Shown: piece by piece, positions 1 through 24,863 of the stretch
Position numbering within the stretch: the first letter of the stretch is position 1
Layout of the letters: each line of letters begins with the position of its first letter
Assembly: GCF_003945235.1 (NCBI RefSeq)
Contig: NZ_RSDW01000001.1
Location: forward strand, 3,990,001-4,022,000
Direction: 5' to 3'
Length of the DNA stretch: 32,000 bases
DNA from: Edaphobacter aggregans
GTDB lineage: Bacteria; Acidobacteriota; Terriglobia; Terriglobales; Acidobacteriaceae
Notes under the pieces: generated by a model
The model's database searches: none
Seen by the model: only the letters and a program-made list of their open reading frames with translations
What the model was told of the DNA's origin: nothing
Program-made: the position numbers and the translations under genes

Positions 1-465
1 CTCGGCCTCAAGCCACTGTGCCCTCTTCTGGCTGCGATGCAGCTCCATCTGGGTTCTAAGAATGCTGAGCAACCGCGCATTTTCCCATGGCTTCTGGATG
101 AAGTCGCCCGCGCCGCGCCTCATCGCATCCACCGCGAGATCGATATTGCCCCACGCGGTCATCACGACGATGGGTAGCTGGGCATCGATCTCTCTAACGC
201 GTGAGACAAGATCCAGTCCCTCCTGGCCCGAGGTTGTGTCGCGGGTGTAGTTTAAGTCAATCAGCAAACCGTCGAAGCTCTCGTGTGCTAGTGCATCGAG
301 CACCAGTGCAGGAGCGCGCACCATCTCGAGCTCGTAACCCTCTGGCTTCAGCAGCAGACGCAGAGCCTCGAGAATGTGTGGTTGGTCATCGGCGATCAGA
401 AGCCTGCAAGGCGTCTCCGCTGATGTCGTCGCCTTGTCGCCTGTGGCCATGCGTTCCACTATCAT
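1..465 (-). CDS. Response regulator, receiver (REC) domain. The 3' part runs off the left edge and the output domain is not visible; possibly NtrC/sigma54-activator class.
   Basis: My translation of the minus strand gives M(IVERM)ATGDKATTSAETPCRLLIADDQPHILEALRLLLKPEGYELEMV...FDGLLIDLNYTRDTTSGQEGLDLVSRVREIDAQLPIVVMTAWGNIDLAVDAMRRGAGDFIQKPWENARLLSILRTQMELHRSQKRAQWLEAE. It shows a CheY-like pattern (ADD ... IDLN ... MTAW ... KPW). GGAG lies 7 nt upstream of ATG 465; an alternative in-frame ATG is at 450. The ORF is absent from the ORF track because it is edge-truncated. Confidence 0.8.
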   Translation of the reverse strand, partial: MIVERMATGDKATTSAETPCRLLIADDQPHILEALRLLLKPEGYELEMVRAPALVLDALAHESFDGLLIDLNYTRDTTSGQEGLDLVSRVREIDAQLPIVVMTAWGNIDLAVDAMRRGAGDFIQKPWENARLLSILRTQMELHRSQKRAQWLEAE

Positions 466-483
466 CCCTTTACTCCACTCCGA

Positions 484-2370
484 TTACTGTCCGCCCGGCG
501 CAATGCCTGTCTTCGCCGATTCTATCGAAATCGAGTTGGCTTCCAACGTAGACCCGACCGAGCGTTCCAGCTCAATCTTAGCCTTTTGGTACGCCGTCAT
601 CGCGGCGACCAGGGTAGACTCGGCTTCTGCAAAGTCCCGGCGAGCGGTCAGAGTCTGGTAACTGGAGCCTGCTCCGAGCTCCTGTTCCTTGCTGGTGATC
701 TCGAAGGTCTTCTGTGCAAGGTCGCGTGCTTTTCGTGCTGCTACCACGCGGGCTTGACTCTGTTCCAGGGCATACTGTGCGTTTCGCACTTCGATGCGGA
801 TCTGCTTTTTCAACTGCTGTAGGCGCAGTTCTGACTGTCGTGCCTCCAATTCGGAGCGATATTGGTCCGACTTCGCCACGCGGTTGCGAATGGGAACGTT
901 GACTGAAAGTCCGACGTAGTAGTCAGGGGCCGAACCGTTGAAAGCGTTTTTCACCGCGCCCCCCCAGTCGGTCGGCGCAGTCGACATCTCCTCCGAAACG
1001 GGATTCGATGGTCCAGCAAGCCCTGTGCCACCGTAGAAAGCATTAAGCGAGACGGATGGGAGCAGGGCGTTGCGGGCCGCGTCGCGGCTGATACGGCGAC
1101 TATCGAGATCAATGCTGGATTCTGTCAGCTCCAAGCGATCGCGCAAGGCCTGCGCGATGATATCTTCCGTCGGCCCCTTGGCAGTTGTATCCTGCATTGC
1201 GCTTTGATCGGTGGGGCGCACTGGCATCGCCTCGAGAATCGGGTCGTCAAGGTTTTTTGTCAGCGCGTTTTTAATCAACAGTTCCTGAAACTGCAGCGTG
1301 GATTTCGCGATGGTGAGGTCTTGTTCGCGATTGGCAACTTCGGCCTCGGCCTTCATCACGTCCATTGCGGGAATGGCCTGCAGTGCAAGTTGTTTACGGT
1401 CATTGTCCAATGTCTGGTTAGCGAAGTCGAGGGAGCGGGTCTTGACCTGCTCGTCTTCATAGGCTGCCGCCAGATCCCAGTACATATTAGCGATTTGCGT
1501 GATCGTCGTAATGACCTGGAGCTTAAAAGCCGCGTCGGAGATCTTTTGATTGTTTTTTGCAATCCGCAGAAAGCGCAGATTAGGGCCGAAGCCGAATCCT
1601 GCCAGCAACTGTTGCTGAAGTGCAACGTGATAGTACGAGTTCAGCGTTGGATTCAGAAAGCTGTTCGGACTATTCGTTGCGCCGCGACTGTTTTCGAAGA
1701 CTGCAGAAAACATAGTTCCAGTCGGAAACGCCTGCGAGTATCCGATGTTGCCGTTCGTCGTATTCTGCTGCAGCGTTTGAGTTCCGTAGATCGACGTATT
1801 TGAGAGTGGCTGCGTGTAGTGTTCGATGTTGAACGAGCCCGTAAGGGAAGGGTCGTAGGAGGCGACATTGGTGCCAGTTCCCAGCGTGGACTGCACCAGT
1901 CCCGACGCACCTGAACCCGCGCCGCCTGCACCGCCCGATGTTCCACCGGCGCCGGCACCAGCCGAACTTGAGCCGAAGCCACCCACGCCGCCGCCCGGTG
2001 TATTCTGCACGACGCCTGTATTGACGCCGCGGAAGGAACCACCAGCCTGCGTTCGCAGAATATCTGCCTGCGCGATCGGAATGTTATAGCGCGCAATCGC
2101 CAGATCAAGGTTGTTCTCAAGTGCGAGGGAGATTGCGTCCTTCAGCGATAATTCCAGAACTCCGTCATGCACCAGCGAATCGATCCTCGCCGAATTTGCG
2201 AGATTCGGTTGCGGTACCAGCGTCGCCCGGTATGTGTTTAGTGGATTGTCGGAGTGCGGGATATCCAGCCGCAGCGCTGGTGCTGTTGCAGTACTCTCCT
2301 GTGCGATTCCAGACGCGGTCACGAGGGCAACCAGGCTTACGCGGGCCAGAAGGGAAGCAGACCTTCTCAC
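484..2370 (-). CDS. TolC-family outer-membrane efflux protein (outer membrane factor)
   Basis: 628-aa ORF with signal peptide MRRSASLLARVSLVALVTASGIAQE. It has the TolC-like two-repeat helical pattern (LSLKDAISLALENNLDLAIARYNI...; LELTESSIDLDSRRISRDAARNALLPSVSL...). The GTG start overlaps the upstream ATPase stop (GTGA). Confidence 0.85.
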   Translation of the reverse strand: MRRSASLLARVSLVALVTASGIAQESTATAPALRLDIPHSDNPLNTYRATLVPQPNLANSARIDSLVHDGVLELSLKDAISLALENNLDLAIARYNIPIAQADILRTQAGGSFRGVNTGVVQNTPGGGVGGFGSSSAGAGAGGTSGGAGGAGSGASGLVQSTLGTGTNVASYDPSLTGSFNIEHYTQPLSNTSIYGTQTLQQNTTNGNIGYSQAFPTGTMFSAVFENSRGATNSPNSFLNPTLNSYYHVALQQQLLAGFGFGPNLRFLRIAKNNQKISDAAFKLQVITTITQIANMYWDLAAAYEDEQVKTRSLDFANQTLDNDRKQLALQAIPAMDVMKAEAEVANREQDLTIAKSTLQFQELLIKNALTKNLDDPILEAMPVRPTDQSAMQDTTAKGPTEDIIAQALRDRLELTESSIDLDSRRISRDAARNALLPSVSLNAFYGGTGLAGPSNPVSEEMSTAPTDWGGAVKNAFNGSAPDYYVGLSVNVPIRNRVAKSDQYRSELEARQSELRLQQLKKQIRIEVRNAQYALEQSQARVVAARKARDLAQKTFEITSKEQELGAGSSYQTLTARRDFAEAESTLVAAMTAYQKAKIELERSVGSTLEANSISIESAKTGIAPGGQ

Positions 2371-3062
2371 GAATGGACCTCCTCTGTACTTGTGGCCGTG
2401 TCGGAGTACATCCAGCCGTCACGCAGTTCAATGGTTCGGGTTCCATAGCGGGCATTGGCCTCCGAATGCGTGACCTGCACGATCGTTGTGCCCTGTTGAT
2501 TCAACATGTGAAACAACTCCATAATCTCCTTTGCCTGTGCGGACTGAAGGTTGCCGGTCGGCTCGTCGGCCAGCAGCAGCGAAGGACGGTGAATGACAGC
2601 CCGAGCGATGCCAACTAACTGTTGCTGTCCGCCGGAGAGCTGGCCAGGATACAGGTCTTTCTTGCCGACGATGTTGAAGCGATCGAGCGTGTCGGCCACC
2701 AACGCTTGCCGTTCGAACTTAGGAATGTCCTTATAGGACAGGGGCAGGTCGATGTTCTCGGCCACTGTTAGATCGTCCAGCAGGTGATAGCTCTGGAAGA
2801 CCATGCCGATTCGCCGCCGGGCAAGGTCGGCTCGCTGCTTGCGGTTCATTGTTTGTACCGCGACGCCGTCAAAGTTGAACTCGCCCTTCCATTGGTCATC
2901 GAGCATCCCGAGCACATTCATCAGCGATGACTTGCCTGCACCGGATGGCCCCATGACGGTTACAAATTCACCTTCGTTAATTGTCAGATTTACGCGTCGC
3001 AAGACCCAGGTTTCCGTATGCCCAGCCCTGTAGCTGCGTTCCAGGTTTCTCAGTTCGATCAT
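2367..3062 (-). CDS. ABC transporter ATP-binding protein, MacB/LolD type (ATPase 2)
   Basis: 231 aa. Walker A GPSGAGKSS, signature LSGGQQQ, Walker B LLLADEPT, H-loop VTHS. It begins 5 nt after the stop of the upstream permease. Confidence 0.9.
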   Translation of the reverse strand: MIELRNLERSYRAGHTETWVLRRVNLTINEGEFVTVMGPSGAGKSSLMNVLGMLDDQWKGEFNFDGVAVQTMNRKQRADLARRRIGMVFQSYHLLDDLTVAENIDLPLSYKDIPKFERQALVADTLDRFNIVGKKDLYPGQLSGGQQQLVGIARAVIHRPSLLLADEPTGNLQSAQAKEIMELFHMLNQQGTTIVQVTHSEANARYGTRTIELRDGWMYSDTATSTEEVHS

Positions 3063-3067
3063 GATTT

Positions 3068-5566
3068 TTATTCCATCCTCAACGCTTGCGTTGGTTCTAC
3101 CGATGCCGCGCGCTGCGCGGGCAATGCCGCGGCGACGATTACCATTATCGCCGTGACTGCAATACAGGCGATCAGTGTTCCAGGATCAAGTGGCTGGACC
3201 TCGAATAACTGGCTCCGTAGGAATCGGGATAATGCAACTGACACTGGCAAAGCTACCGTAAGTCCAACTGCCGCAATCTTTACCATGTCCATAAGCACGA
3301 GCTGCACGACCGCAATCCGCTGTGCGCCAAGAGCCATCCGGATGCCAATCTCTCGCGTCCGTTGTGCTGTTGCGTATGCCAACACGCCATATAAACCCAC
3401 AGCAGTTGTCAGGAGAGCTACCAGAGCAAAGCTTACTGCGAGCAACGCGATCATCCGTTCATTCGATACGTTTGCGTCGATCTGCTCGTCCATCGTCTTC
3501 ATTGAATCGGCGACGAGCTTCGGGTCCAACCCATGGAGTGCCGTGCGGATCGTGTTCTCCGCAGCTTCCGGAGCCTGCTCAGTCCGCACGTAGAACACCA
3601 GATTGTTTGCCCCGAGATTCTGAGCAAACGGTCGGTACAGCGTCCTCACGACACCTTCTCGAACACCGTGCTGTTTGGCGTCGCCAACGACTCCTACAAT
3701 TTGCGTATCGAGTTTGACTTTGTCCCCGGCCCCCTGGGCAATGGAGTGTCCCAGCGCCTTCTGAGGAGAGCCAAAATATTTCACTGCAAAGCTCTGGTTC
3801 ACTACCGCCACCCTCGGAGCACCGGTGGTATCCGCTTCAGCAAGATCGCGCCCCGCAATGAGGGGAATTCCCAGCGCTGCAAAGTAGCCCGGTGTGATCC
3901 ATGGCGTCTCGACATCAACGTCCTCATCGGCCTTTGCGGCATAGCCTTCGATCGTGATGTTGCTCTGAGTGTCGTCGTCTGCCAGCACAGGATCCGACGT
4001 CCCGCCAGCCACTTGCACCCCAGGCAGTCCGCGCAGCACGGCCCGAATCCGGTCCTGCAACGGGATCGCATCTTTCTGCGCATATCCGGCCATCGTTGGC
4101 GAAATCCCCAACTCCACCAGATGATCCGTCGTCATACCCATGTCCTGTGCCTTGAGGTTGTGAAGAGTCCTAACAAATAGCCCAGCCCCACTCAGCAGAA
4201 GGACGCTCAACCCGATCTGGATTGCAATTGCTGTTCGACGGAAGCGCTGCGCCGCACCCAAAGTGCTTGCCGATTGCTGGCGCAGCGACTCATTCAGTCC
4301 AGGCCTCATCATCTGCCACGCCGGCGCCATACTGAACAGCAGGCTGATGCCTACGGACAACGCCAGATTGAACCCGAATACTGTTCCAGTCGGTGCCACA
4401 GAGAAAGGCAGATCCCCACTTTCACTGATTCGCCGCACCAACATCGCCGCAGCCGTTGGCGCCAAAGCCAGACCTAGCGCGCCGCCCAGCGTTCCAAGCA
4501 GCAGTCCTTCAATCAGCATCTGCCGCAGAATGCGCCCGCGCGCCGCTCCAAGAGCGTATCGCACTGCAAACTCGCGTTCCCTTGCCGACGCCCGTACCAG
4601 CAGTAAGCTCGTCAGATTGACGCAGGTCATCGCCGCCAGCAGAAGCACCATCACCATCAAAATCATGAGCGGTGTCCGGAGGCTGTCTCTCAGGGGAGAG
4701 AAGCCCTTCGCATCATCCGTCAACACGATGCTCGACTTCGCGACAAAGTGTTCGCGAAACTGTGCAGAGATCGTCGGCATCGTGTTCAACTCTTCAGTGC
4801 GGAGGCTGCGCCATAGCGTGGTCATTGCCGCAGCAGCTGTCGTCGCGCTAACTTCCGGCTTCAGTCTGCCCACAATATTCAGCCATCGTGATCGGTGGTC
4901 TTCCAGATCGTCCCGGCCCGGCATCACTTGCGGCTTCATTGTCATCGGCACAAAAATCTTCGGTGTATACCCGTTGATCGCACTGCTGAACCCTGCTGCC
5001 GCCACTCCGACAATCGTGAACGGATGACCGTTGATCAGCAATGTCTGATTCACTGCATCCGATGAAGAGTTGAACCGCGTCTTCCAGTAGTCGTAACTTA
5101 AGACCACGACGGGACTGCCTTCCTTCACGACGTCATCGCTCGGTACAAGCAGCCTTCCTGCTGCCGACTTCACACCCAACACATCGAAGTAGTTTCCGCT
5201 AACGATCTCCGCCGACAGCAACTCCGGCTGGTTCTTCCATACCGCACCTACCTGCGTTTCATCGTTCGCTAGTAGTCCGCCGAATACAGTGTTTTTGTCT
5301 CGCAGATCGCGATACATCGGATAAGAAAAGAAGTCCTTATCCGTACCGCCAAACACGCTGATATGTCCCCTGTCAGACCCGATGAAGCTTAGCCGTACCA
5401 GTTCCTCCGGTCGCTGAACCGGCAGCATCCGCAGCAGCACTTGATTGAACACCGTAAAGATTGCGGTGTTCGCGCCGATCCCCAATGCAAGCGTTAGAAT
5501 CGCCGTCAGCGTAAAAGCCGGCGCTTTCTTCAACTGCCGCAATGCATAACGAAGATCCTGCATCAT
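3068..5566 (-). CDS. Duplicated FtsX/MacB-type ABC permease, ADOP-like (permease 2)
   Basis: 832 aa. The N-terminus MMQDLRYALRQLKKAPAFTLTAILTLALGIGANTAIFTVFNQVLLRMLP is characteristic of the ADOP family. Two MacB-periplasmic-domain plus FtsX-like 4-TM modules can be recognised. GGAGAGAG RBS upstream. Confidence 0.85.
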   Translation of the reverse strand: MMQDLRYALRQLKKAPAFTLTAILTLALGIGANTAIFTVFNQVLLRMLPVQRPEELVRLSFIGSDRGHISVFGGTDKDFFSYPMYRDLRDKNTVFGGLLANDETQVGAVWKNQPELLSAEIVSGNYFDVLGVKSAAGRLLVPSDDVVKEGSPVVVLSYDYWKTRFNSSSDAVNQTLLINGHPFTIVGVAAAGFSSAINGYTPKIFVPMTMKPQVMPGRDDLEDHRSRWLNIVGRLKPEVSATTAAAAMTTLWRSLRTEELNTMPTISAQFREHFVAKSSIVLTDDAKGFSPLRDSLRTPLMILMVMVLLLAAMTCVNLTSLLLVRASAREREFAVRYALGAARGRILRQMLIEGLLLGTLGGALGLALAPTAAAMLVRRISESGDLPFSVAPTGTVFGFNLALSVGISLLFSMAPAWQMMRPGLNESLRQQSASTLGAAQRFRRTAIAIQIGLSVLLLSGAGLFVRTLHNLKAQDMGMTTDHLVELGISPTMAGYAQKDAIPLQDRIRAVLRGLPGVQVAGGTSDPVLADDDTQSNITIEGYAAKADEDVDVETPWITPGYFAALGIPLIAGRDLAEADTTGAPRVAVVNQSFAVKYFGSPQKALGHSIAQGAGDKVKLDTQIVGVVGDAKQHGVREGVVRTLYRPFAQNLGANNLVFYVRTEQAPEAAENTIRTALHGLDPKLVADSMKTMDEQIDANVSNERMIALLAVSFALVALLTTAVGLYGVLAYATAQRTREIGIRMALGAQRIAVVQLVLMDMVKIAAVGLTVALPVSVALSRFLRSQLFEVQPLDPGTLIACIAVTAIMVIVAAALPAQRAASVEPTQALRME

Positions 5567-5576
5567 CTGCTCTCTC

Positions 5577-8129
5577 CTATTCGGTCCGCAATGCCTTCAC
5601 CGGATCGGTCGAAGCTGCCCGCCGCGCCGGAATAAGTCCGGCGGCGAACGCGGAACCGATCAACGTCGCAATCGCCGCGAACAGTACTGTTGCATCATGA
5701 CGGGCGACGCTATAAAGCTGCGATTGCACGAATCGGGCGCACAGCAAAGCGACAGGGATGCCAATCGCGAGACCTATTCCGGCCTGGATCATCGCCTCTC
5801 GGAGTACCATGCTGACGACGCTGCCACGACCTGCTCCCATCGCCATGCGTATTCCAATTTCAGGAGTGCGCCGCGCAACCGTGTAGGCAGTGACACCGTA
5901 GAGTCCGACTGACGCCAAGATGAGAGCAAGAACGCCGAACATCAATGTCAGCCGGGCTATGAGGCGTTCCTGGTTGAATTGTCCTCTAATCTGTCCAGCG
6001 AATGTGTCGTAGCGCGTTACCGTAAGATTTGGATCAATGTTTGCCAGCGTCCGGCGCATCTGCGCTTCCAATCCTTCGACCGAGCCCTTGGTTTGCAACA
6101 TGATCGCTCCTGCATATAGCGAGCGGATGTCGTCCTCAGGCTTTGTGTGGGCAACTTGCAGGAGTGGGCGGAAGTACATCGCACGCATCGGTTGGCGTAC
6201 GTTGTTGTACTTCACATCGGAAACCACTCCCACAATCTCAAAGTCGGCAGCGCTTTCAACACCCGATATGCCGAAGTGAACGCCGATAGGGTCTTCTCCC
6301 TTGGTGAAGAATTTTTTGACGAAGGCCTGATTGACCACTGCGACAGGAGTGGAGGTTGCTGTATCTTGCGCGGTGATTCCGCGCCCGCGAAGCACGTGGT
6401 GTCCGACGATCTCGAAGAATTCCGGCCCCACACGCAACCATGAGGCGCCAATATTCTCGCCTGCTCTGGGCTCGGGTCTGCCCTGAATCACAACGCCTTC
6501 GCCCCAGTTGTTTCCCTCGAGGGGCGTGTACAGGGATAGAGAGGCTCGCTCCACTCCGGGCAGCGCGTGAAGATCTTGATCAATCTTCTCGTAGAGCGGT
6601 TGTAACTGCTCGGGCTTGAAGCCTGCATTCTCCGGATTAAAGTGTGCAACTACCCGATTATGGGTCTCGACCCCAAAGTCCTGATTCTCCAATTTATTCA
6701 GGCTCTTCGCCATCAAACCTGCGCCGACCAACAGCACTAGAGATAGCGCCGCCTGCAGAATGACCAGCGATCGTTGCAGCCAGCCTGAGTGGTCCATCGT
6801 AGATCTGTTCGATCCGCGCAATGCCTCAGCTGGCTCAGAGTGCGATGTTACCCAGGCTGGCGCGATGCCGAAGATTAACCCTGTTATCAGCGATAGTCCG
6901 AATGCAAACGTGAGCACGACTGGAGACGGAGTTGCATGGATAGGGAGATTCGTAGCACCAGGGAAGGCCATGGTCAGAAGCACTCTCGTGCCGCCATACG
7001 CAACCACCAATCCAGCAAGGCCGCCCATGCACGATAGCACCACACTCTCGGTGAGCATCTGCCGGATCAGTCTCTTTCTCTGTGCGCCCAGCGCCATGCG
7101 TATCGAAGTCTCTGCACGCCGCGCCATGCCGCGCACGAGCACCAGGTTCGCAATGTTGGCACATGCGATCAGCAGAACCAGCGCGGAGATAGAGATCAGA
7201 AGCCGAAGTCCAGTGCCGAACTCCTGCTGCATGTTCGCGATGCCGACTCCGCCCGGCGTAAGGATCACATGCGATTCTGCGAGATTTTTCTTCTCATCTT
7301 CTTTCTGGTAGAGCGGGAGTTGTGTGAGATAGTTGCGCAGAGATGCGCTCATCTTCGCCTGCAAGGGAGCCATCGCAGTTCCGGGCTTGACCCGACCCAA
7401 GATGTAGACCCAGTTCGCTCCCTGACGATGCAAAAGGCTCGTCGGATGAGCAGGGCCGAGGAGGGGCTCCATGGCCATGGGGATGTAGAAATCCGGCGGA
7501 GTGTCTGTCATACGATCTCCGTAGAATCCGGCAGGAGCAATCCCCAAAATGGTCACCGGATATGTATTCAGCACAAAAGTGCTGCCGACAACCGAGGGAT
7601 CGAGAGCGTAATCACGTTGCCACGTCTGGTAGCTCATGACAACTCCCATAGGCGCTCCGACAACATCGTCGCTCGGTGTCAGGAGCCGTCCCGCATAGGG
7701 CTGTAGACCGAAGACCTGGAAGTAATTGCCGGAGACCATCTCTCCCCGTGTAGCTTTCGGCAGTGAATCGGGCTTGTTACTACGCGCCGTGATCGAGCCG
7801 TATCCTACACCTGCCTGCATTGCGGCCAACTGCTCGAACTCGGGCGTATTGTCGCGAAGATGTGTATAGAGTTCGTAGGCAAATAACGAATAGTTATTGT
7901 TTTCCGGCGTACCACCGTTGACGCAGCAATCGTCCTGGTCGCCAACCCGGACCAATGTTTTGGGGTCGGTGACCGGCAGATTCTTGAGCAGCACAGCGTT
8001 CACCAGCGTGAAGATTGCTGCATTTGCGCCAATCCCAAGTGCCAGCGTCAAGATCGCCGTCAGAGTAAATCCAGGAGCCTTCCGCAACTGACGCAGCGCG
8101 TACTGTACGTCCTGTATCAATCGGTTCAT
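5577..8129 (-). CDS. Duplicated FtsX/MacB-type ABC permease, ADOP-like (permease 1)
   Basis: 850 aa. N-terminus MNRLIQDVQYALRQLRKAPGFTLTAILTLALGIGANAAIFTLVNAVLLKNLP, with the same two-module architecture as 3068..5566. GAGGA RBS 8 nt upstream of the ATG. Confidence 0.85.
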   Translation of the reverse strand: MNRLIQDVQYALRQLRKAPGFTLTAILTLALGIGANAAIFTLVNAVLLKNLPVTDPKTLVRVGDQDDCCVNGGTPENNNYSLFAYELYTHLRDNTPEFEQLAAMQAGVGYGSITARSNKPDSLPKATRGEMVSGNYFQVFGLQPYAGRLLTPSDDVVGAPMGVVMSYQTWQRDYALDPSVVGSTFVLNTYPVTILGIAPAGFYGDRMTDTPPDFYIPMAMEPLLGPAHPTSLLHRQGANWVYILGRVKPGTAMAPLQAKMSASLRNYLTQLPLYQKEDEKKNLAESHVILTPGGVGIANMQQEFGTGLRLLISISALVLLIACANIANLVLVRGMARRAETSIRMALGAQRKRLIRQMLTESVVLSCMGGLAGLVVAYGGTRVLLTMAFPGATNLPIHATPSPVVLTFAFGLSLITGLIFGIAPAWVTSHSEPAEALRGSNRSTMDHSGWLQRSLVILQAALSLVLLVGAGLMAKSLNKLENQDFGVETHNRVVAHFNPENAGFKPEQLQPLYEKIDQDLHALPGVERASLSLYTPLEGNNWGEGVVIQGRPEPRAGENIGASWLRVGPEFFEIVGHHVLRGRGITAQDTATSTPVAVVNQAFVKKFFTKGEDPIGVHFGISGVESAADFEIVGVVSDVKYNNVRQPMRAMYFRPLLQVAHTKPEDDIRSLYAGAIMLQTKGSVEGLEAQMRRTLANIDPNLTVTRYDTFAGQIRGQFNQERLIARLTLMFGVLALILASVGLYGVTAYTVARRTPEIGIRMAMGAGRGSVVSMVLREAMIQAGIGLAIGIPVALLCARFVQSQLYSVARHDATVLFAAIATLIGSAFAAGLIPARRAASTDPVKALRTE

Positions 8130-8158
8130 TGCTTGATCCTCGTTTTGCGAAGGAGATA

Positions 8159-8515
8159 TTAGGCTGCCTGTTTAGTTCCGCGGTAGCTCAGCGCACTTGC
8201 AACATCGGTGTGCACGACATTCGAGTGCACGCTGGGCAGAGGCACACTCAACTTCACGCTGTACTGCCGCATCCCAATGATCACAGTGAATCCTGGCTTC
8301 GGCTCGGCAGAGCAGACATGCGAGCGCATTGCATTGATCTCGTTCTCAACAGGGTCGCCACTATTTGCGCTTAACCGCAGACCGTCTCCATCTGCCATAC
8401 AGAAGAACGCCGCATTGAATCCGACACCCATCACCACTGCCAGAATCAGCGCCGCGGCAAATCCAGGCTGCTCGCGAAAATCAGCCTTCATGTCATTCAC
8501 TATCTCAGCGATCAT
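8159..8515 (-). CDS. Small single-TM protein resembling only the N-terminal TM1 segment of an FtsX/ADOP permease (accessory subunit or gene remnant)
   Basis: 118-aa ORF. Its ATG overlaps the ATPase-1 stop (ATGA at 8512-8515). The segment FREQPGFAAALILAVVMGVGFNAAFF parallels LRKAPGFTLTAILTLALGIGANAAIF of the neighbouring ADOPs. I do not recognise the rest of the protein. Confidence 0.35.
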   Translation of the reverse strand: MIAEIVNDMKADFREQPGFAAALILAVVMGVGFNAAFFCMADGDGLRLSANSGDPVENEINAMRSHVCSAEPKPGFTVIIGMRQYSVKLSVPLPSVHSNVVHTDVASALSYRGTKQAA

Positions 8516-9234
8516 CCCTCTACCTCCGCCAGTAGCCGGCTCAGCTCTCCTTCGGCTACGACTTTGCCATCGAATAGATGTATCTGCCGTTCCGCATGCG
8601 CTGCAAAACGTGGATCGTGCGTCACCATGCAGATGGTTGCTCCCTCGTCATGCAGTTCCTTCAGCAACGTCATCACGGCTTCGCCATTCTTCGAATCAAG
8701 ATTTCCCGTGGGCTCGTCGGCCAGCAGGATGGACGGCGAACCCGCCAGCGCTCTCGCTACGGCGACTCTCTGTTGCTGACCACCCGAGAGCTGCGCTGGA
8801 TAGTGCCTCATACGATGCGCCATATTCACGCGCTCCAGCGACTCCTGCACGCGCTTCTTGCGCTCCGAGGCAGGCATACCCGTGCGATAGGTCAGAGGAA
8901 GCTCAACATTTTCAGCAACGGTAAGGTCGCCGATCAGATTGAAGCTCTGGAAGATGAAGCCGATCTCCTGGTTGCGTATGCGTGAGCGGTCGGCGAAGTT
9001 CAGGTTCGCCACTGCCTTGCTGTTCAACGTGTAGTTGCCGCTGGTCGGCGTATCCAGCAAGCCGATGATCGACAGCAGTGTCGATTTGCCGCATCCGGAA
9101 GGACCAGACATGGCCACGTACTCGCCGCGCGCAATGTTAAGGTGAACCCCGGAGAGTGCATGTGTTTCGATCTCGTCCGTGTAGAAGATCTTCGTCAGCT
9201 GCTCAATCTCGATAATCGTCTCTGCCATGCTCAT
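8512..9234 (-). CDS. ABC transporter ATP-binding protein, MacB/LolD type (ATPase 1)
   Basis: Walker A GPSGCGKST, signature LSGGQQQ, Walker B ILLADEPT, H-loop VTHD. I chose the start at ATG 9234 (MSMAETIIEIEQL), which lies just downstream of AAGGAG (9243-9238). The track start at 9279 would overlap the adaptor gene by 34 nt. Confidence 0.9.
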   Translation of the reverse strand: MSMAETIIEIEQLTKIFYTDEIETHALSGVHLNIARGEYVAMSGPSGCGKSTLLSIIGLLDTPTSGNYTLNSKAVANLNFADRSRIRNQEIGFIFQSFNLIGDLTVAENVELPLTYRTGMPASERKKRVQESLERVNMAHRMRHYPAQLSGGQQQRVAVARALAGSPSILLADEPTGNLDSKNGEAVMTLLKELHDEGATICMVTHDPRFAAHAERQIHLFDGKVVAEGELSRLLAEVEG

Positions 9235-9245
9235 GCTCTCCTTGC

Positions 9246-10505
9246 CTATTCCAGGCGGATCTTGTCTGTGTTGTCCCATCTGCTCATGTCCGACAGAATG
9301 ACGGTGTCGCCCTCCTGCAGACCTTCAATCACCTGAATGCTGTTCACCGAAGCTCGTCCAACTTTTACCGGAACTCGTACTGCTGTCTTGCCGTCCGTGC
9401 TCAGCTTGAAGAGGCTGATGGTACTGTTTTCGTTGCCGAACGCAGGGCGGCCCACGTAGACCACGTTTGCCATCCGGTCCAGATCGATCGTTCCATCAAC
9501 GCTCAGGTCCGGACGGGCGCCAAGTGGCAGAGCGCCTGCAAGTTCTACGTCAACGGTCACCGTTCCGTTCACTACCGCCGGATCAATTCGCATCACCTTA
9601 CCCTGAATGACACCGTTATGGGTGTCGATCTCCGACGGTTGGCCGATCTGGATGTCGCGCGCCTGCGTCTCGGCGATCTTCAAGCTGGCCTTCAGCTGGT
9701 CTGGTTGAACGACCTTCGCGAGCGTCGCCCCTGGATCCACGTGTTCTCCTACCTGGTGCGGCAGGTCGACAAGAACGCCACTGATTCCTGCGCGCACACT
9801 CAGCGCATCCTGTTGCTTCTGTTTCAGCGCCAGCAGAGCCTGCGCCTGTTCCACCTTCGTCTGCTGCACGGCAATCTGAGTCTCGATAGCTTTTTCATTC
9901 AGCGTCAGCCGTTGTTTCTCAAGACCATCCCGTGTCGTCAGCTCATCCGCTTTGCCCTTCGAAGCGTTGTACGTCAGCCCACTGATTACGCCCAGGTCGT
10001 AGAGCGATTTATCCGTCTGCGCCTGCAACTTCGCCTGACTGAAGTCCGCGCCCACTGTCGCTGCCGCGGCCTTCTGTGTCATCAGGTCGCTCTGCAACTT
10101 TGCTTTAACATTCGTCAGGTCGGCCTGTGCCGCCTTCAACTGCAACTGAGCGTCCAGCAACTCCTGCTGCACAGTCGGATCTGCCAGATCCATCAGGATT
10201 GTGTCCGGTTCCACCTTTGCGCCTGGAAGTACGCGGATGCGCACGACCGTCGCCTCCGTCTCAGCAGGAATCAGCCGAATCCTGTCCTCACGCGGAACCA
10301 GAGTGCCGGGTCCACGAACCTGCCGTAGCAGCGGCCCCCGTTTGACTTCGTCGGTCCAGACCGTTGCGCGGTCTACCGTAGGGGCCGCAGGCTTGAGCCG
10401 CGACACAAACAGCGCCACGCCAGCCAGCGCTAAAACGCCAACCCCCGTTGCGATCAATTGGCGGCGCATCTTCTTTTGCTTGATATCTGGTCTTGAGATG
10501 TCCAT
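9246..10505 (-). CDS. HlyD/MacA-family periplasmic adaptor (membrane fusion protein)
   Basis: 419 aa. N-terminal anchor MRRQLIATGVGVLALAGVALF, a long coiled-coil hairpin (QQELLDAQLQLKAAQADLTNVKAKLQ...), and a C-terminal beta-barrel region (GKVMRIDPAVVNGTVTVDVEL). The true start may be the second in-frame ATG at 10469. Confidence 0.85.
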   Translation of the reverse strand: MDISRPDIKQKKMRRQLIATGVGVLALAGVALFVSRLKPAAPTVDRATVWTDEVKRGPLLRQVRGPGTLVPREDRIRLIPAETEATVVRIRVLPGAKVEPDTILMDLADPTVQQELLDAQLQLKAAQADLTNVKAKLQSDLMTQKAAAATVGADFSQAKLQAQTDKSLYDLGVISGLTYNASKGKADELTTRDGLEKQRLTLNEKAIETQIAVQQTKVEQAQALLALKQKQQDALSVRAGISGVLVDLPHQVGEHVDPGATLAKVVQPDQLKASLKIAETQARDIQIGQPSEIDTHNGVIQGKVMRIDPAVVNGTVTVDVELAGALPLGARPDLSVDGTIDLDRMANVVYVGRPAFGNENSTISLFKLSTDGKTAVRVPVKVGRASVNSIQVIEGLQEGDTVILSDMSRWDNTDKIRLE

Positions 10506-10520
10506 TGCATACGTAGTAGG

Positions 10521-10536
10521 AGCAAGTCCCCTGCCA
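10521..10536 (-). promoter_or_regulatory. Candidate sigma54 (-24/-12) promoter of the efflux operon
   Basis: The minus strand from 10536 to 10521 reads TGGCAGGGGACTTGCT. Against the consensus TGGCACG-N4-TTGCW this has one mismatch and the exact GG-N10-GC spacing. It lies 16 nt upstream of ATG 10505. Confidence 0.6.
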
Positions 10537-10578
10537 ACGATGCATGAGCATTTTCAATGGCTTACGCTGCTGATTCCA

Positions 10579-10609
10579 GTCCGCACTGTCCGCGAGTGTG
10601 ATTGAGTGT
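10579..10609. repeat. Two adjacent pairs of 6-nt direct repeats: GTCCGC-N3-GTCCGC, then GAGTGT-N4-GAGTGT
   Basis: Read directly on the plus strand. GTCCGC is at 10579 and 10588; GAGTGT is at 10594 and 10604, giving 9- and 10-bp periodicity. The block lies 43-88 bp upstream of the -24 element in the intergenic region. Confidence 0.5.
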
Positions 10610-10672
10610 CCATTTTTGAACACCAAAATACCCTCGCAGAGTTTGCTGTAGCTATACGTCCACCTGCCATCT

Positions 10673-11704
10673 CTATATAGAGACGGTTTTATAAGTAGGC
10701 TCCAGTGCGCGTTGTGCAGTGATCTTGAGATTCGAAGGCAGGTAACTGAGTAGATGCTGCAACCGACTCGCCACACTGCTGGCCACGGCGGCATCCGGCG
10801 AGACTTCCCGGATATGAGGCAGCCCCCACAGCACACTCCATGATTCATCAATCTCATCCAGCCCGTGCGCTGCGGTGTCCAGAGCCTGATACTTTTGCCA
10901 AACTACAGGGTCGATGATCAGCCCGTTGTCGATGCACTTACCCATCATCCACTTCAGAGTAATGTCGGAGAGACCGCAGTCCTTGCACCCGCCACCCACG
11001 CTGCTATGGCATCCGCTGAACCACACCTGCTCGAGGATCTGCCCCGGAACGTTATCGCTCACCCAAAGGGTCGGTGGAAACGCCTTGCGCCGCTCATCTA
11101 TCGAAATCGCATGATAGGCGGCCTTTACCGATGCGCTCAGTTGCGTATCAAGAAAGCCGTACAAAACCGGATCTACGCCGCCAAATAAACTTGGTACGCC
11201 TAGCGAGCCCACTGTATCCCAAACCCCGATCATCGCGATCGTCACCGGCTTGTTGCCGTACTTCGCTGTCAAGTTTGCCTGGGCCGCTGCGCGCTCCGGA
11301 GAACCTGGTTTCATCCGGTAGGTGTTGAAGGCATCACTAATGGCGTCGTCCGTCAGATTGGTAGGCAGCCCGCACGCGGACAGCATCCCACCGATGCTTC
11401 TGGCCGTATAGGCACCGCGGCTAAAACCGATCAGGAAGATCTGATCTCCCTCGGAATAATCATGTGCAATCTTGGTGTAGCCTTCCTTCACCTTGTTGAA
11501 CAGTCCGGTGCCAAACGCTCCGCCCAGCAAGTGGCTGATAATCGATCCGTCGGTGCCGACTCCATCGTCGTAGCGTGGACATTGCGTTGCAGTCGTGGGC
11601 AGCGCTTTGTACAGCTTGTACACGTTCGTATCCGTCACAGAGACCGTATTGGCCTCCTTAGGATGATTCCACGTTCCGTCTGCACAAAAGATGATGTTCT
11701 TCAT
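10673..11704 (-). CDS. DUF2235 alpha/beta hydrolase (T6SS phospholipase effector Tle1-like domain)
   Basis: 343 aa. Hallmark motifs appear in order: IIFCADGTWN, GFSRGA (GxSxG nucleophile elbow), VWDTVGSLG, HAISIDERRKAF, QVWFSGCHSSVGGG. No signal peptide. GAGGG RBS 7 nt upstream. Confidence 0.85.
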   Translation of the reverse strand: MKNIIFCADGTWNHPKEANTVSVTDTNVYKLYKALPTTATQCPRYDDGVGTDGSIISHLLGGAFGTGLFNKVKEGYTKIAHDYSEGDQIFLIGFSRGAYTARSIGGMLSACGLPTNLTDDAISDAFNTYRMKPGSPERAAAQANLTAKYGNKPVTIAMIGVWDTVGSLGVPSLFGGVDPVLYGFLDTQLSASVKAAYHAISIDERRKAFPPTLWVSDNVPGQILEQVWFSGCHSSVGGGCKDCGLSDITLKWMMGKCIDNGLIIDPVVWQKYQALDTAAHGLDEIDESWSVLWGLPHIREVSPDAAVASSVASRLQHLLSYLPSNLKITAQRALEPTYKTVSI

Positions 11705-11872
11705 TGCAATACCCTCTCATAACTGACCGCCAAGTCGCACCGGAGCCCTTGAAATGAACAGCACCATGCTACACCGGATCAGCAGAGCGATCTTTCGACA
11801 AAGATTCATTGCTGGATATGTACAGTACTATCGGAAAATCCTCGCAACCGGCGAGAAGAGATCCGTATCCCG

Positions 11873-13027
11873 ATGATCGTCTTTCGTTCCTGTTTTGCAA
11901 CGAAGCTAAATCTGTACATCTTGCTTCTCCTCCTCGCAACACTGCGACTCCCGGCTCAGACAACGCTCGCGACCTTGTCATCTCCTCTCGACTATCAGGT
12001 CTTCCAGCGTCAAAGCCGACAGCAAGGGACCATCTTGATCCGCGGTCGCGTCAGTGTCCCTGCGGATCGTGTTGAAGCCCGCATCGTCGGCCAATCTCTC
12101 CCATCGAAATGGAAGCGCCTCACCTTCGATAGCACAACAGGAGACTTTCGATCCGATGCCCCAACTCCAGCGGGCGGTTTTTACTCCGTAGAGGTGAAGT
12201 TGCTGCGCAAGTCACGGACCGTTGCTGAGCTGACAGTGCCGCACGTAGGCGTTGGAGAAGTCTTCCTCATCTCCGGCCAATCCAACTCGACCAACTACGG
12301 CGAAGTCCCCCAGACAACGGAAACCGGCATGGTGACAACCTTCAGCGGAGAGGCGTGGCAGCTCGCCAATGACCCTCAGCCCGGAACGCAGGACAACAGC
12401 AAAAAGGGCAGCTTCGCCCCGTCCTTTGGCGATGCACTCTACCGCAAATATCACGTGCCTATTGGAATCGCCTCGGTTGGCCACGGCTCTACCAGCGTGC
12501 GTCAATGGCTGCCGACGGGCGAACGTGTCGAAGTGATGCCGACCATGACGAAGTACATCCTCAAGGGTAACGACGGCAGCCTCACCAGCGATGGCACTTT
12601 ATTCAATGGAATGATGGCGCGCATACATCAACTCGGCCCACATGGCTTTCGCGCCATTCTCTGGCACCAGGGCGAGTCGGACTCCCATCAGCCGCCGGAG
12701 CACGAAATCTCCGGCGAGACGTACCGCCGTATGCTCGAGCACGTCATTCTTACCACTCGTAAGCAAGCCGGCTGGGACATCCCGTGGTTCGTCGCCCAGG
12801 CCAGCTATCACACGCCTGAAGACACATCTACTCCGGCCATCCGCGAGTCTCAGCGTAGTCTCTGGCAAGCCGGCATCGCGTTGGAAGGTCCCGACACGGA
12901 CACTCTCACCGCCGCGTACCGGCAGAATAACGGCAAGGGCACTCACCTCAACGATGCAGGCCTGAAGCTGCATGGCCAGATGTGGGCCCACCAGGTGGAA
13001 CTGTATCTGGACGAAGTCTTGAGGTAG
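11873..13027 (+). CDS. SASA-family (sialate O-acetylesterase-like, DUF303) carbohydrate esterase, secreted
   Basis: 384 aa. Signal peptide LNLYILLLLLATLRLPAQT. Motifs FLISGQSNS (GQSN nucleophile), ILWHQGESD, and GTHLNDAG near the C-terminus. Confidence 0.7.
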   Translation: MIVFRSCFATKLNLYILLLLLATLRLPAQTTLATLSSPLDYQVFQRQSRQQGTILIRGRVSVPADRVEARIVGQSLPSKWKRLTFDSTTGDFRSDAPTPAGGFYSVEVKLLRKSRTVAELTVPHVGVGEVFLISGQSNSTNYGEVPQTTETGMVTTFSGEAWQLANDPQPGTQDNSKKGSFAPSFGDALYRKYHVPIGIASVGHGSTSVRQWLPTGERVEVMPTMTKYILKGNDGSLTSDGTLFNGMMARIHQLGPHGFRAILWHQGESDSHQPPEHEISGETYRRMLEHVILTTRKQAGWDIPWFVAQASYHTPEDTSTPAIRESQRSLWQAGIALEGPDTDTLTAAYRQNNGKGTHLNDAGLKLHGQMWAHQVELYLDEVLR

Positions 13028-21773: not shown

Positions 21774-22614
21774 TGGCCTTCGCCACACGCTTCTTTGGCG
21801 TCGATTGATCTTCAAGCGGCGGCAGCGCGCCCAGAGCCTCCGAGATCTGCTGACTCGCCTTCCGCAGCGCAGCGGCCACCTCCTGCACGCCAATGGTGTC
21901 CTCAATGCGCTTCACATAAGGAACCGTCAGGCCAGCGACGGCAGTCCCCTGCGAGTTCAGAACAGGGAAGCTGATATTCATCACGCCGGTCACCTCATAG
22001 CTGGCGCGCCGCTCGTATCCGCGCACGCGAATCTTCGCCAGATGATCATCCAGATCAGCCGGCTTCTTCTTCTTCGCTTCCTGCGACCACTCCTGGATGG
22101 CCCGCTCACGCACATCCTCGGACTGGTGAGCCAGAATCACGTGGCCGGTCGCGGCATGCATCAGGTCAACCTTCGACCCCACCTTCACATAAAACCCCGT
22201 GGACTCAGGCGAATCGACCTGCGCCAGAATCACCACATGGCCGCCGTCCAGCACACCCAGATGGCACGACTGCCGCAGCTCATGTGCCAGCCAGTGCATG
22301 ATTGGCAGTGCCTCCGTGACCATGCGCTTTGTCGGCGGATGCTCCTGCCCCAGCCGGAAGAGTCGCAGCGTCAAATGGTAGCGGTCCTTATTGGCGGACT
22401 GGGCAAGGTATCCCCGCTGCTCCAGGCACAGCAGCATGCGGAAGATCTCCGACATCGTCCGATTCAGCCGTCGCGCAACCTCGCTAACCGTAAGGCCTTC
22501 AGGTGTACCGGCAAACAGCTCCAGAATATCCAGCCCCTTCTCCAGCGCGGGAGTCGGGTAGTATCGCTTAGTCTCTGGTTTAGCCGCCAGCGTTCGAGGA
22601 GTAGAAGATCGCAT
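21766..22614 (-). CDS. IclR-family transcriptional regulator (KdgR-like)
   Basis: I chose the start at ATG 22614 (MRSSTPRTLAAKPE...). N-terminal wHTH: ALEKGLDILELFAGTPEGLTVSEVARRLNRTMSEIFRMLLCLEQRGYL. The C-terminal part resembles an IclR effector domain. Confidence 0.85.
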   Translation of the reverse strand: MRSSTPRTLAAKPETKRYYPTPALEKGLDILELFAGTPEGLTVSEVARRLNRTMSEIFRMLLCLEQRGYLAQSANKDRYHLTLRLFRLGQEHPPTKRMVTEALPIMHWLAHELRQSCHLGVLDGGHVVILAQVDSPESTGFYVKVGSKVDLMHAATGHVILAHQSEDVRERAIQEWSQEAKKKKPADLDDHLAKIRVRGYERRASYEVTGVMNISFPVLNSQGTAVAGLTVPYVKRIEDTIGVQEVAAALRKASQQISEALGALPPLEDQSTPKKRVAKAKK

Positions 22615-22715
22615 CCCCCCAAAAATAACAAAATGCAGCTCAAACGTGTAAACAAACATTTACGCTGCTACTCCGCCGATACCTGCGCCAGCCATCGCCC
22701 CTGCCTCATGTAGCA

Positions 22716-24056: not shown

Positions 24057-24124
24057 CAGAAAGTTCTTTGCTCGCGGGGACCAGCATAGGGCAATAGTCG
24101 GCATCTCACAGGCAGCACTTCGAA

Positions 24125-24550
24125 TTGACCGAAAACGATCTCATGCCGCTATCGCAGCAGTTTGCGTATCTCGTCATCCTCGCGCTCCCGATCGCCTGCG
24201 TCTCCTGGACCGTTACCCACGAAGAGGTCTTTCGCGAGCCTCGCGAATGGTGCAAGGGCCAAAGCGAGCGCTGCCGCTCTCTCCCCTCAAGAAAATTCTT
24301 CTATCTCTTCACCTGCGAGTATTGCTTCAGCCACTACACCGCAGCCTTCTTCCTGCTGATCACCGGCTTCCACATGCTTTACGAGGGCTGGCGAGGCTAC
24401 CTGATCGCCTGGTTCGCGCTCGTCTGGGTTGCTAATATCTACATGAGCTTCTTCAACCGTTTGCGTCTGGATATCAAACACGAAAACGTAGCCATCGCCG
24501 TAGACCAAAACAAAGTAGCCGATGATGCTCAACCAAAGCAGGCCTCTTAG
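24125..24550 (+). CDS. Small integral membrane protein, possibly DUF1360-like
   Basis: 141 aa (TTG 24125; alternative ATG 24143). Three or four hydrophobic segments. The motif FTCEYCFSHYTAAFF resembles the CxxC-W motif of DUF1360 as I remember it. Confidence 0.55.
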   Translation: MTENDLMPLSQQFAYLVILALPIACVSWTVTHEEVFREPREWCKGQSERCRSLPSRKFFYLFTCEYCFSHYTAAFFLLITGFHMLYEGWRGYLIAWFALVWVANIYMSFFNRLRLDIKHENVAIAVDQNKVADDAQPKQAS

Positions 24551-24678
24551 ATTTCCTCCGGGGAAGAAACGTCCCCTCCAAAAAACTGTCAAGTGAAAAC
24601 CTAGATATCTCCAATAAAACCAATAATATACAAGTGCCGATTCATTCCCTTCCATCCGTTACACTTGAAATAGAGATC

Positions 24679-24710
24679 AAAAAGCCTCCGGCAGACCACC
24701 GGAGGCTTTT
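24679..24710. terminator. Bidirectional rho-independent terminator
   Basis: AAAAA-GCCTCCGG-cagacca-CCGGAGGC-TTTT forms a perfect 8-bp GC-rich stem, flanked by an A-run and a T-run. It lies between convergent genes. Confidence 0.8.
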
Positions 24711-24742
24711 CACCTTAACGGGAAGAACAAACTATGTATTTT

Positions 24743-24837
24743 GAATACTTTGCAAGGAGTACCCCGCGAAAATCAAGACTTTTCAGACTCAATTCGCGCG
24801 AAGTCCAGACCTAAGCCTAATCTTTCGAATACTTTGC
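24743..24837. repeat. 11-nt direct repeat GAATACTTTGC, two copies 84 bp apart
   Basis: Exact copies at 24743-24753 and 24827-24837, both preceded by a T-rich tract. They lie in the non-coding stretch between the valS stop and the 24679-24710 terminator. Confidence 0.6.
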
Positions 24838-24839
24838 GG

Positions 24840-24863
24840 AAAAAAGGGGGAGGGGTACCCTCC
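24840..24863 (-). terminator. Weak rho-independent terminator immediately after valS
   Basis: After the TAA stop, the minus strand reads GGAGGG-TAC-CCCTCC-CCC-TTTTTT. This is a 6-bp stem with a tight 3-nt loop. Confidence 0.45.

Follow-up and report, generated by a model that had tools for sequence, protein, structure and literature searches.

A probable sigma-54-controlled operon for a Type VII tripartite efflux machine built on ADOP permeases in Edaphobacter aggregans

Gene content of the operon

We analysed a stretch of 32,000 nucleotides (nt) of Edaphobacter aggregans (contig NZ_RSDW01000001.1, positions 3,990,001 to 4,022,000), hereafter the window, around two permeases of the family named Acidobacterial Duplicated Orphan Permease (ADOP). 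The minus strand of its positions 1–10536 carries a compact gene string (Table 1) encoding an adaptor, a first ATPase (A1), a 118-aa protein, the permeases ADOP1 and ADOP2, a second ATPase (A2) and a TolC-family duct. With a probability of roughly two in three, we consider this locus to be a sigma-54-controlled operon for an ATP-binding cassette (ABC) tripartite efflux machine of Type VII (MacB superfamily) built on ADOPs.

A preliminary description, made from the letters of this DNA, had reported seven same-strand open reading frames (ORFs) with junctions of -4 to +29 nt, and had recognised in them two ADOPs inside an adaptor-ATPase-TolC operon with two ATPase genes. All seven ORFs are present and each junction matches on direct reading—from the adaptor to the duct gene, 11, -4 (ATGA), 29, 10, 5 and -4 (GTGA) nt; family matches and gene order agree with the operon proposed. 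The start of A1 was set at Met16 of the longest ORF, matching orthologues of 236–241 aa, and a Shine-Dalgarno-like purine run precedes most starts of the string. The unit nevertheless exceeds the one first described: an eighth gene, for a sigma-54 response regulator, begins 18 nt past the stop of the duct gene, a sigma-54-type promoter precedes the adaptor, and relatives add a kinase. Simple scans of positions 1–11900 for terminator-like and sigma-70 promoter-like sites found no excess over shuffled sequence.

Table 1. Features of the operon in the window, in the order of the minus strand (TM, transmembrane helix; NBD, nucleotide-binding domain).
Feature	Position	Strand	Remarks
Conserved upstream box TAAGCCATTGAAAAT (consensus AAGTnATTGAAAAT)	10550–10564	-	-59 to -45 from adaptor ATG
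Sigma-54-type promoter element TGGCAGGGGACTTGC (GG-N10-GC)	10522–10536	-	17–31 nt upstream of adaptor ATG
Adaptor (periplasmic membrane fusion protein)	9246–10505	-	419 aa, one N-terminal TM anchor
ATPase A1	8512–9234	-	240 aa, canonical MacB-type NBD
118-aa ORF (small membrane protein gene)	8159–8515	-	start overlaps A1 stop (ATGA)
ADOP1	5577–8129	-	850 aa, fused pseudo-dimeric Type VII permease
ADOP2	3068–5566	-	832 aa, accessory permease, variable slot
ATPase A2	2367–3062	-	231 aa, MacB-type NBD with conserved deviations
TolC-family outer-membrane factor	484–2370	-	628 aa, GTG start overlaps A2 stop (GTGA)
Response regulator, first 155 codons	1–465	-	leaves the window; PF00072 73 bits

Family assignments

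Both permeases belong to the family that the preliminary description had named: they match TIGR03434 end to end over its 803 positions, with 895.9 bits for ADOP1 and 845.5 bits for ADOP2 against a cutoff of 622.3. The Pfam domains that it expected are also found, MacB_PCD and FtsX in the permeases and PF00005 in both ATPases. Each ADOP contains two MacB_PCD and two FtsX domains, i.e. an internal duplication within one polypeptide; two permease units thus stand in one chain, which carries no NBD, the ATPases being separate genes. ADOP1 and ADOP2 are 36% identical. Hydropathy and an AlphaFold2 model both give eight TM helices to ADOP1, and the layout is one TM, a periplasmic domain and three TMs, a cytoplasmic linker of ~25 residues between TM4 and TM5, then the same again. 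The model (pLDDT 67.8, pTM 0.57) was used for topology and fold class only. In a Foldseek search of the PDB the top match is YbbP of Escherichia coli, which aligns along the whole chain (E 1e-15, TM-score 0.43–0.45), with further matches to MacB, Spr0695, YtrF, LolC/E, BceB and HrtB, while by sequence MacB and Spr0695 are the nearest solved relatives. ADOP is a fused pseudo-dimer of the Type VII fold.

The adaptor matches PF16576 (HlyD_D23, 52.4 bits) and PF13437 (HlyD_3, 47.1 bits), its TM lying at residues 17–35, and the duct gene matches both repeats of PF02321 (OEP, 142.6 bits). The MacAB-TolC-like tripartite reading of the preliminary description fits the Pfam, NCBIfam and PDB sequence matches as well as Foldseek. 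The TolC-family protein is long (relatives have 621–700 aa) and bears a Gly/Ser/Ala-rich low-complexity insert at about residues 115–165, in its N-terminal part.

Conservation of the operon

A scan of species-representative genomes yielded 78 loci, with identities to ADOP1 from 92% down to 33%, whose ORFs were classed by BLASTP against the proteins of the window. We call hub an operon with the adaptor, A1 and A2 chassis; the close loci number 15, including the window. The order adaptor, A1, ADOP(s), A2, TolC-like duct is kept in 14 Acidobacteriaceae loci besides the window, each from another species-representative genome, far more than chance would give. In Terriglobus albidus and another Acidobacteriaceae genome the string reads adaptor, ATPase, (small ORF), ADOP(s), ATPase, duct, sigma-54 regulator, kinase. 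Orthologues of ADOP1 in Edaphobacter, Terriglobus and other Acidobacteriaceae are 73–92% identical; those of the adaptor in hub loci reach 74–98%, those of A1 across the clade 90–99%, and the -4 nt overlap of A2 and the duct gene is kept in many loci. Three distant Acidobacteriota loci show rearranged versions (P standing for an ADOP): adaptor-P-P-A1-P-P-A2-regulator in L040, adaptor-A1-A2-P-P-P-P-regulator-kinase in L062, and in L053 adaptor-A1 with six ADOPs behind it, at which point the fetched locus ends. Many contigs of soil metagenomes also have this arrangement. Metagenome contigs sampled with A2 as anchor have ADOPs beside A2 in 33 of 42 loci of at least 6 kb; the order of the parts varies widely among them, and the ADOPs number from 0 to at least 5.

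By its description the ADOP family is "orphan", its genes being as a rule neither fused nor adjacent to an ABC ATPase gene. We collected 151 full-length ADOPs from 81 loci, many of which contain several, a sample biased towards hubs: 30 stand in hubs, 30 next to PadR genes, 51 in arrays and 40 alone. The orphan rule, which the preliminary description had set against this locus, therefore stands for most other ADOPs sampled (30/151 in hubs) and fails for ADOP1 and ADOP2, which have two flanking ATPase genes. Outside hubs the usual settings are PadR-ADOP pairs, ATPase-less tandem arrays and solitary genes, and hub-containing loci are rare, 3/42 at paralogue-level identity and 1/~25 at 43–58% identity. 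The linkage of ADOPs to ATPase, adaptor and TolC-family genes, for which a survey of neighbourhoods had been suggested, is kept across genera. Given the TIGR03434 scores and this cross-genus conservation, two of the outcomes named beforehand as fatal to the proposal—a sub-cutoff score, an arrangement unique to this genome—were not found.

Alignment of the 151 ADOPs shows conservation of the N-terminal helix, TM1, the two coupling helices (R..E..vR.ALGA.R...RQ.LtES for the first, RT.EIGIRMALGA for the second) and the C-terminus. These cytoplasmic-face motifs are alike in hub, PadR-linked, array and solitary ADOPs, and the periplasmic domains are the most variable. No motif separating hub from orphan ADOPs was found among the 151, as all classes share the same ones; this is consistent with common partners, without being diagnostic of them.

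Some ATPase-less arrays contain four to five ADOPs: those in L039 (2540–12529), L041 (2456–12490) and L056 (2488–12520), and also in L045 and L047, among them ADOP2 homologues of 51–55% identity. A divergent sigma-54-type regulator gene lies downstream of the array in L039, L041 and L056; a search for GG-N10-GC before the arrays gave a plausible site for L041 alone, L039 and L056 showing no convincing one. An ADOP cluster adjoining other transporter genes has been described in Psychroflexus torquis (PMC3914696). In the searchable literature we found neither the present operon described nor any Type VII system with two ATPases, and no report naming partners for ADOPs.

The permease slot

The number of ADOP genes is the variable part of the operon. 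It ranges from 0 to at least 6 per chassis, with constant adaptor, A1, A2, regulators and usually duct: one ADOP lies between A1 and A2 in 12 of the 15 close loci and two in the other three (the window, L001 and L017), four are found in L040 and in L062, and at least six in L053. The set of two ADOPs and two ATPases first described thus exists in the window but is not the conserved state. ADOP1 is the conserved operon permease in the Edaphobacter/Terriglobus relatives. The nearest relatives, L011 and L022, have no ADOP2, although A1 is there 98–99% and A2 96–99% identical to the window's; the second ADOP of L001 is not an orthologue of ADOP2, and homologues of ADOP2 (49–55% identical) occur beside A2 in other hubs as well as in ATPase-less arrays. 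Between lineages, the ADOP content of hubs is not orthologous, whereas A1, A2, adaptor and regulator are.

The synonymous divergence (dS) between the window and L011 points in the same direction. It is 0.39–0.49 for the adaptor, A1 and A2 but 1.24 for ADOP1 (L011 10001–12541), i.e. 2.5–3 times that of the flanking genes, and ~1.9 or 4–5 times for the periplasmic domains; all the genes compared are under strong purifying selection. The permease slot therefore has a history unlike that of the motor genes, and the presence or absence of ADOP2 maps to this same slot. These comparisons suggest that permeases might be exchanged between strains like cassettes, by recombination in the slot, of which ADOP2 is an accessory occupant.

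At the extreme, two metagenome hubs have no permease at all. L111 (7781–15625) reads adaptor-A1-A2-duct-regulator-kinase, and in L153 (4625–10696) the kinase and regulator genes are divergent from adaptor-A1-A2, which are joined by 4-nt overlaps. Each locus spans ~20 kb with no permease gene; both have kept the promoter element, and their neighbours are unrelated housekeeping genes.

The two ATPases

A1 (PF00005, 117.9 bits) has the motifs GPSGCGKST, LSGGQQQR, DEPTGNLD and VTHD; A2 (PF00005, 111.5 bits), 42% identical to A1, has LSGGQQQL and the D-loop DEPTGNLQ. Their best NCBIfam matches are DarD, MacB and LolD, all below the equivalog cutoffs, and the nearest PDB relatives of A2 by sequence are the NBDs of Spr0694 and MacB. 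The two deviations of A2 are fixed. All 43 distinct A1 sequences are canonical (LSGGQQQR, DEPTGNLD), whereas in 89/89 distinct A2 sequences the Arg after the signature is Leu or Ile (LSGGQQQ[L/I]) and in 86/86 readable ones the D-loop Asp is replaced, by H (71), Q (8) or N (7). At the two sites the solved NBDs of MacB and Spr0694, compared residue by residue, carry R and D. The catalytic motifs are present in both ATPases, A2 included: Walker A, Q-loop and signature, along with the Glu of Walker B and the His of the H-loop. In ABC transporters the Asp of the D-loop normally makes contact with the opposite NBD.

A1 and A2 are adjacent in L062, L111, L118, L124 and L127, and both adjacent and translationally coupled in L153. 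Where ADOP2 is missing, A2 remains constrained: against L011 and L022 the ratio of non-synonymous to synonymous divergence (dN/dS) of A2 of the window is 0.02–0.03. More distant A2-like ATPases, 54–63% identical, carry the same L/H motifs in other contexts, and the parts of the system can be encoded separately (L141, L145, L086, L094).

Promoter, regulator and kinase

The promoter element TGGCAGGGGACTTGC is one mismatch away from TGGCAC-N5-TTGC. Of 17 aligned upstream regions, 16 have GG-N10-GC at -31/-30 relative to the adaptor ATG, the distant L053 included, the bases between the GG and GC parts varying freely; it also lies at -29 to -31 in the metagenome hubs L111, L115 and L153. Between the end of the element and the ATG of the adaptor, which is conserved, lie only 16 nt, with no evident Shine-Dalgarno; this proximity implies a very short leader, with a nearly leaderless first gene. 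The AAGTnATTGAAAAT box is at the same offset in most orthologous upstream regions and could be a regulator or an integration host factor (IHF)-type site.

Orthologues of the regulator, of 463–472 aa, have the NtrC-type domain set Response_reg, Sigma54_activat and HTH_8, and the histidine kinase gene comes next in the complete hub loci of the clade. The kinase of the T. albidus operon (L001 19122–20570) has two TMs close together (33–51 and 57–75) and a PAS domain, without a periplasmic sensor domain, a layout reminiscent of kinases that sense through their cognate transporter. Taken together, promoter element and regulator make an autoregulated sigma-54 operon with a very short leader likely.

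The small ORF

The 118-aa ORF, labelled "hypothetical protein" in public data, has no match in Pfam or NCBIfam, and BLASTP gave no alignment between it and the 121-aa ORF at the same place in T. albidus. It begins with an ADOP-like N-terminal helix and TM1, its one TM being at 22–40, followed by a tail of ~75 aa with the motif PGFTVI(I/V)G...YSV.LSVP. An ORF of 118–144 aa stands at the same place in 12 other hub loci (L001, L004–L009, L011, L022, L024, L049 and L064), its start at most 4 nt from the A1 stop; it is missing only where the spacer between A1 and the ADOP is ~40 nt (L002/L003 and L017). All versions open with an ADOP-like L.D.R..LRE and then one TM helix, the dN/dS between orthologues is 0.10–0.47, and hhalign matches residues 1–39 to the ADOP profile (92% probability, E 6.6e-7). 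Positional retention, dN/dS, the common N-terminus and the profile-profile match show that this is a real gene, the product of which is a selected, fast-evolving single-pass membrane protein derived from the N-terminus of an ADOP. That the ORF is a non-coding relic is ruled out by its retention in 12 loci, its dN/dS and its homology to the ADOP N-terminus. The gene is translationally coupled to that of A1, and one idea is that its product may hold this ATPase or regulate it.

Other short ORFs derived from ADOPs (~100–112 aa) lie just upstream of A2 in other lineages, namely in L100 (3711–4019), L126 (6265–6588) and L136 (9660–9998). In L100 and L126 an ADOP N-terminus is joined to an ADOP C-terminal segment, and in L136 the N-terminus stands alone. 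Stubs of this kind look like the outcome of recombination between the tandem paralogues of ADOP arrays.

Discussion

ADOPs are among the largest paralogous families of soil Acidobacteria, annotated as partner-less and of unknown function ever since the family was defined. The conserved operon names candidate partners for them: two ATPases, an adaptor, a duct, a sigma-54 regulator and a kinase. Among known systems, the parts are those of MacAB-TolC (PDB 5NIK, 5LIL, 5GKO), in which a MacB-type NBD, a MacA/HlyD-type adaptor and a TolC-family duct are likewise encoded together, and the permease is likewise an FtsX-type 4-TM unit with the MacB_PCD periplasmic domain between TM1 and TM2. From this likeness a mechanism by mechanotransmission is expected (PMC5985334). 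However, MacB proper has its NBD fused N-terminally and its permease is a homodimer, while here the NBDs are separate and both units stand in one 8-TM chain; the operon further differs by its two ATPase genes, its variable permease number and its sigma-54 and two-component control. In its working the system would resemble MacAB-TolC, without being a MacB in the strict sense.

For the permease, the closest parallel is YbbAP(-TesA) of E. coli (PDB 9GE6–9GE8; PMC12646458), where one internally pseudosymmetric chain contains a pair of FtsX units and a pair of periplasmic domains of the Porter/Sabre kind, the ATPase has a gene of its own, and which gave the best full-length match of the ADOP1 model; the identity between YbbP and ADOP1 is however only 12–14%. 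YbbP has ten TM helices, two 4-TM units plus two linking helices (PMC12646458, PMC5985334). ADOP has eight against the ten of YbbP and BceB, the two linking helices being absent. Besides, YbbAP contains two copies of one ATPase (2:1) where our operon encodes two ATPases, and its partner is the periplasmic hydrolase TesA instead of an adaptor and a TolC-family duct.

The steps of the machine that we propose can be ranked by falling confidence. There is good support for the first, that a single ADOP polypeptide would supply the entire transmembrane and periplasmic part, as YbbP does. It would take its substrate from the periplasm or from the outer leaflet of the inner membrane and drive it by mechanotransmission through the adaptor into the TolC-like duct; mechanotransmission is established for MacB and extraction from the inner membrane for YbbAP (PMC5985334, PMC12646458). 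With moderate support, A1 and A2 would form an asymmetric NBD heterodimer, one for each of the two distinct coupling helices: this is argued by their strict co-occurrence, by a pair that stays constant at any ADOP number, by their adjacency or overlap and by the change of the D-loop on one side only. Next, ADOP1 and ADOP2 would be alternative permeases for the same motor, adaptor and duct. Lastly, and less well supported, the ADOPs of other loci, be they PadR-linked, arrayed or solitary, would probably plug into the same chassis, as the permease-less hubs, the non-orthologous hub ADOPs, the exchanges in the slot and the common cytoplasmic motifs suggest. As for the function, an inducible export of diverse toxic small molecules or peptides is suggested by the hypervariability of the periplasmic domains and by control through PadR or two-component systems.

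Regarding the stoichiometry, which the preliminary description had left open, the strictly conserved differences between A1 and A2 would shift it towards one A1/A2 pair per fused ADOP, away from one ATPase type per ADOP or from an ADOP1/ADOP2 heteromer. One ATPase per ADOP is moreover disfavoured by the single-ADOP loci that retain both ATPases.

Several observations weigh against the machine as proposed, or at least do not speak for it. The ADOP1 model is of moderate quality only, at the scores given above. The adaptor falls just below the cutoff of TIGR01730 (RND_mfp, 87.6 bits against 94.9), and the duct below those of TIGR01844 (67 against 225) and TIGR01845. Conserved coupling helices are found throughout the MacB superfamily and so do not discriminate. 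YbbP, BceB and LolCE use a single ATPase species, so that an asymmetric permease needs no two NBDs, and since both ATPases have the catalytic Glu and His, neither is obviously degenerate. The linkage of A1 and A2 is not absolute: A2 is found with a duct gene only in L141 (9949–11981) and L145 (10001–12023), with a regulator and kinase only in L086 (6376 onwards), and in a PadR-ADOP array without A1 in L094. Finally the constant A1 and A2 pair is equally compatible with two homodimers that would serve different subsets of ADOPs.

The widest form of our proposal, which we put forward as a possibility and only tentatively, is that the adaptor/A1/A2/duct locus would be the single shared engine for the whole ADOP repertoire of the genome, encoded in cis or in trans. 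The asymmetric A1/A2 heterodimer, for which we know of no precedent among Type VII ABC systems, would dock on whichever ADOP is expressed, under PadR or other control, and the dozens of orphan ADOPs would be interchangeable cartridges selecting the substrate for one motor and one exit duct. Opposed to it is the rather unlikely view that the chassis serves only the ADOPs of its own operon, the others relying on other ATPases or being true orphans. Off-hub ADOP loci indeed rarely lie near an ABC ATPase gene, never one of the A1/A2 type; hubs are scarce among loci of lower identity, as counted above; and the PadR-ADOP pairs and ATPase-less arrays look independent, with regulators of their own. 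Such a self-contained pump is nevertheless at odds with L111 and L153, which are intact and promoter-bearing and need a permease from elsewhere, and it fits badly with hub ADOPs that are not orthologous between lineages, unlike A1, A2, adaptor and regulator, with the raised synonymous divergence of the ADOP slot relative to its flanks, and with cytoplasmic-face motifs equal in all ADOP classes.

For the motor itself, the main alternative to the A1/A2 heterodimer is two homodimeric motors each with its own ADOP subset: two parallel pumps, an A1 homodimer with ADOP1 and an A2 homodimer with ADOP2 (or with subsets of ADOPs), sharing adaptor and duct. We judge it improbable, in spite of several arguments. 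The order of the window is mirror-like, A1-(stub)-ADOP1 and then ADOP2-A2, and L017 has the same layout with P1-type and P2-type ADOPs; in the metagenome hubs L122, L125, L126, L135 and L136, a P2-type ADOP (49–53% identical) stands upstream of A2, either directly or past a short ADOP fragment. All characterised Type VII systems, besides, have a single ATPase species. On the other hand both ATPases are kept beside a single ADOP in 12 of the 15 close loci; L011 and L022 have no ADOP2, yet their A2 is nearly unchanged and strongly constrained; an A2 homodimer would have no Asp in either D-loop, whereas the solved MacB and Spr0694 have it; and A1 and A2 are neighbours in L062, L111, L118, L124 and L127 and coupled in L153.

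The least probable view, to which we give very little credit, gives A2 a role in signalling or assembly, linked to the duct and the two-component system, instead of one in transport, and leaves an A1 homodimer alone to drive the ADOPs: it could draw on the overlap of the A2 stop with the duct start in many loci, on the A2-like genes of L141, L145 and L086, on the non-canonical D-loop and residue beside the signature, and on a hub kinase with two close TM helices and no periplasmic sensor, as in Bce-type modules, but A2 retains its catalytic motifs, its closest solved relatives are transporter NBDs, and we know of no case in which a free ABC NBD acts across the inner membrane on a member of the TolC family.

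Other known systems share some features of the operon. DarD is the best NCBIfam match of both ATPases (251.6 and 249.1 bits, cutoff 375), the ADOPs are close in size to the long permease DarB (777-position profile) and match it weakly (55.9 and 23.2 bits against 700), and the adaptor has 48.4 bits for DarC, the ABC adaptor (cutoff 450); with all three scores far under the equivalog cutoffs, membership of DarBCD is ruled out. The dar operons have one ATPase gene, and the window locus differs also in having no gene for the biosynthesis of a ribosomally synthesised and post-translationally modified peptide (RiPP). LolCDE is likewise Type VII, with a non-identical permease pair—LolC/E match each half of an ADOP—and a MacB-type ATPase; it differs by two permease genes, a homodimeric LolD, the absence of adaptor and duct, and the extraction of lipoproteins. 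BceAB-BceRS resembles the operon in its fused Type VII permease, separate ATPase and linked kinase without periplasmic sensor domain, the hub kinase having two adjacent TM helices and a PAS domain. BceB differs by ten TM helices and a single extracellular domain, and the Bce modules by their single ATPase species, OmpR-type regulator, Gram-positive hosts and lack of adaptor and duct. Bce-module kinases sense the transporter and have no periplasmic sensor; the parallel with the hub kinase is an analogy.

If the A1/A2 heterodimer is real, the operon would add to Type VII an architecture not yet described, in which NBDs of two kinds serve one fused 8-TM permease. A shared chassis, for its part, would make it understandable that these bacteria can maintain specialised efflux permeases by the dozen, and would suggest a modular strategy against the chemically diverse toxins of soil. 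A shared engine would then be the exporter counterpart of the group II energy-coupling factor (ECF) transporters. In these (EcfA/EcfA'/EcfT with many S components), as with MsiK/MsmK, one ATPase module serves many scattered membrane components, the ECF module containing two different ATPases; the likeness holds only if ADOPs do use the chassis in trans, and as these are importers of unrelated folds it is an analogy and not family membership. The conserved and the permease-less operons together make the orphan question of ADOPs directly testable.

Surroundings of the operon

A Tle1-like gene (PF09994, a family of phospholipase effectors of the type VI secretion system) lies upstream of the adaptor on the same strand (-), at 10673–11704, with 167 nt between the two; T. 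albidus does not have it at this position, so that a relation to the operon is improbable. Beyond it is a gene for a SASA-type esterase (11873–13027, +). Scans of the window for tRNA and Rfam families gave no matches, and its remainder is ordinary Terriglobia chromosome, with genes for a TonB-like outer-membrane protein, a fucosidase, valyl-tRNA synthetase (ValRS), a BamD-like protein and Rpe. A swing in composition is found at 22001–25000: the GC content is 0.60–0.64 at 22–24 kb, with a strongly negative GC skew, and 0.51 at 24–25 kb, just upstream of the ValRS gene; 22.7–24.0 kb contains only overlapping ORFs, on both strands.

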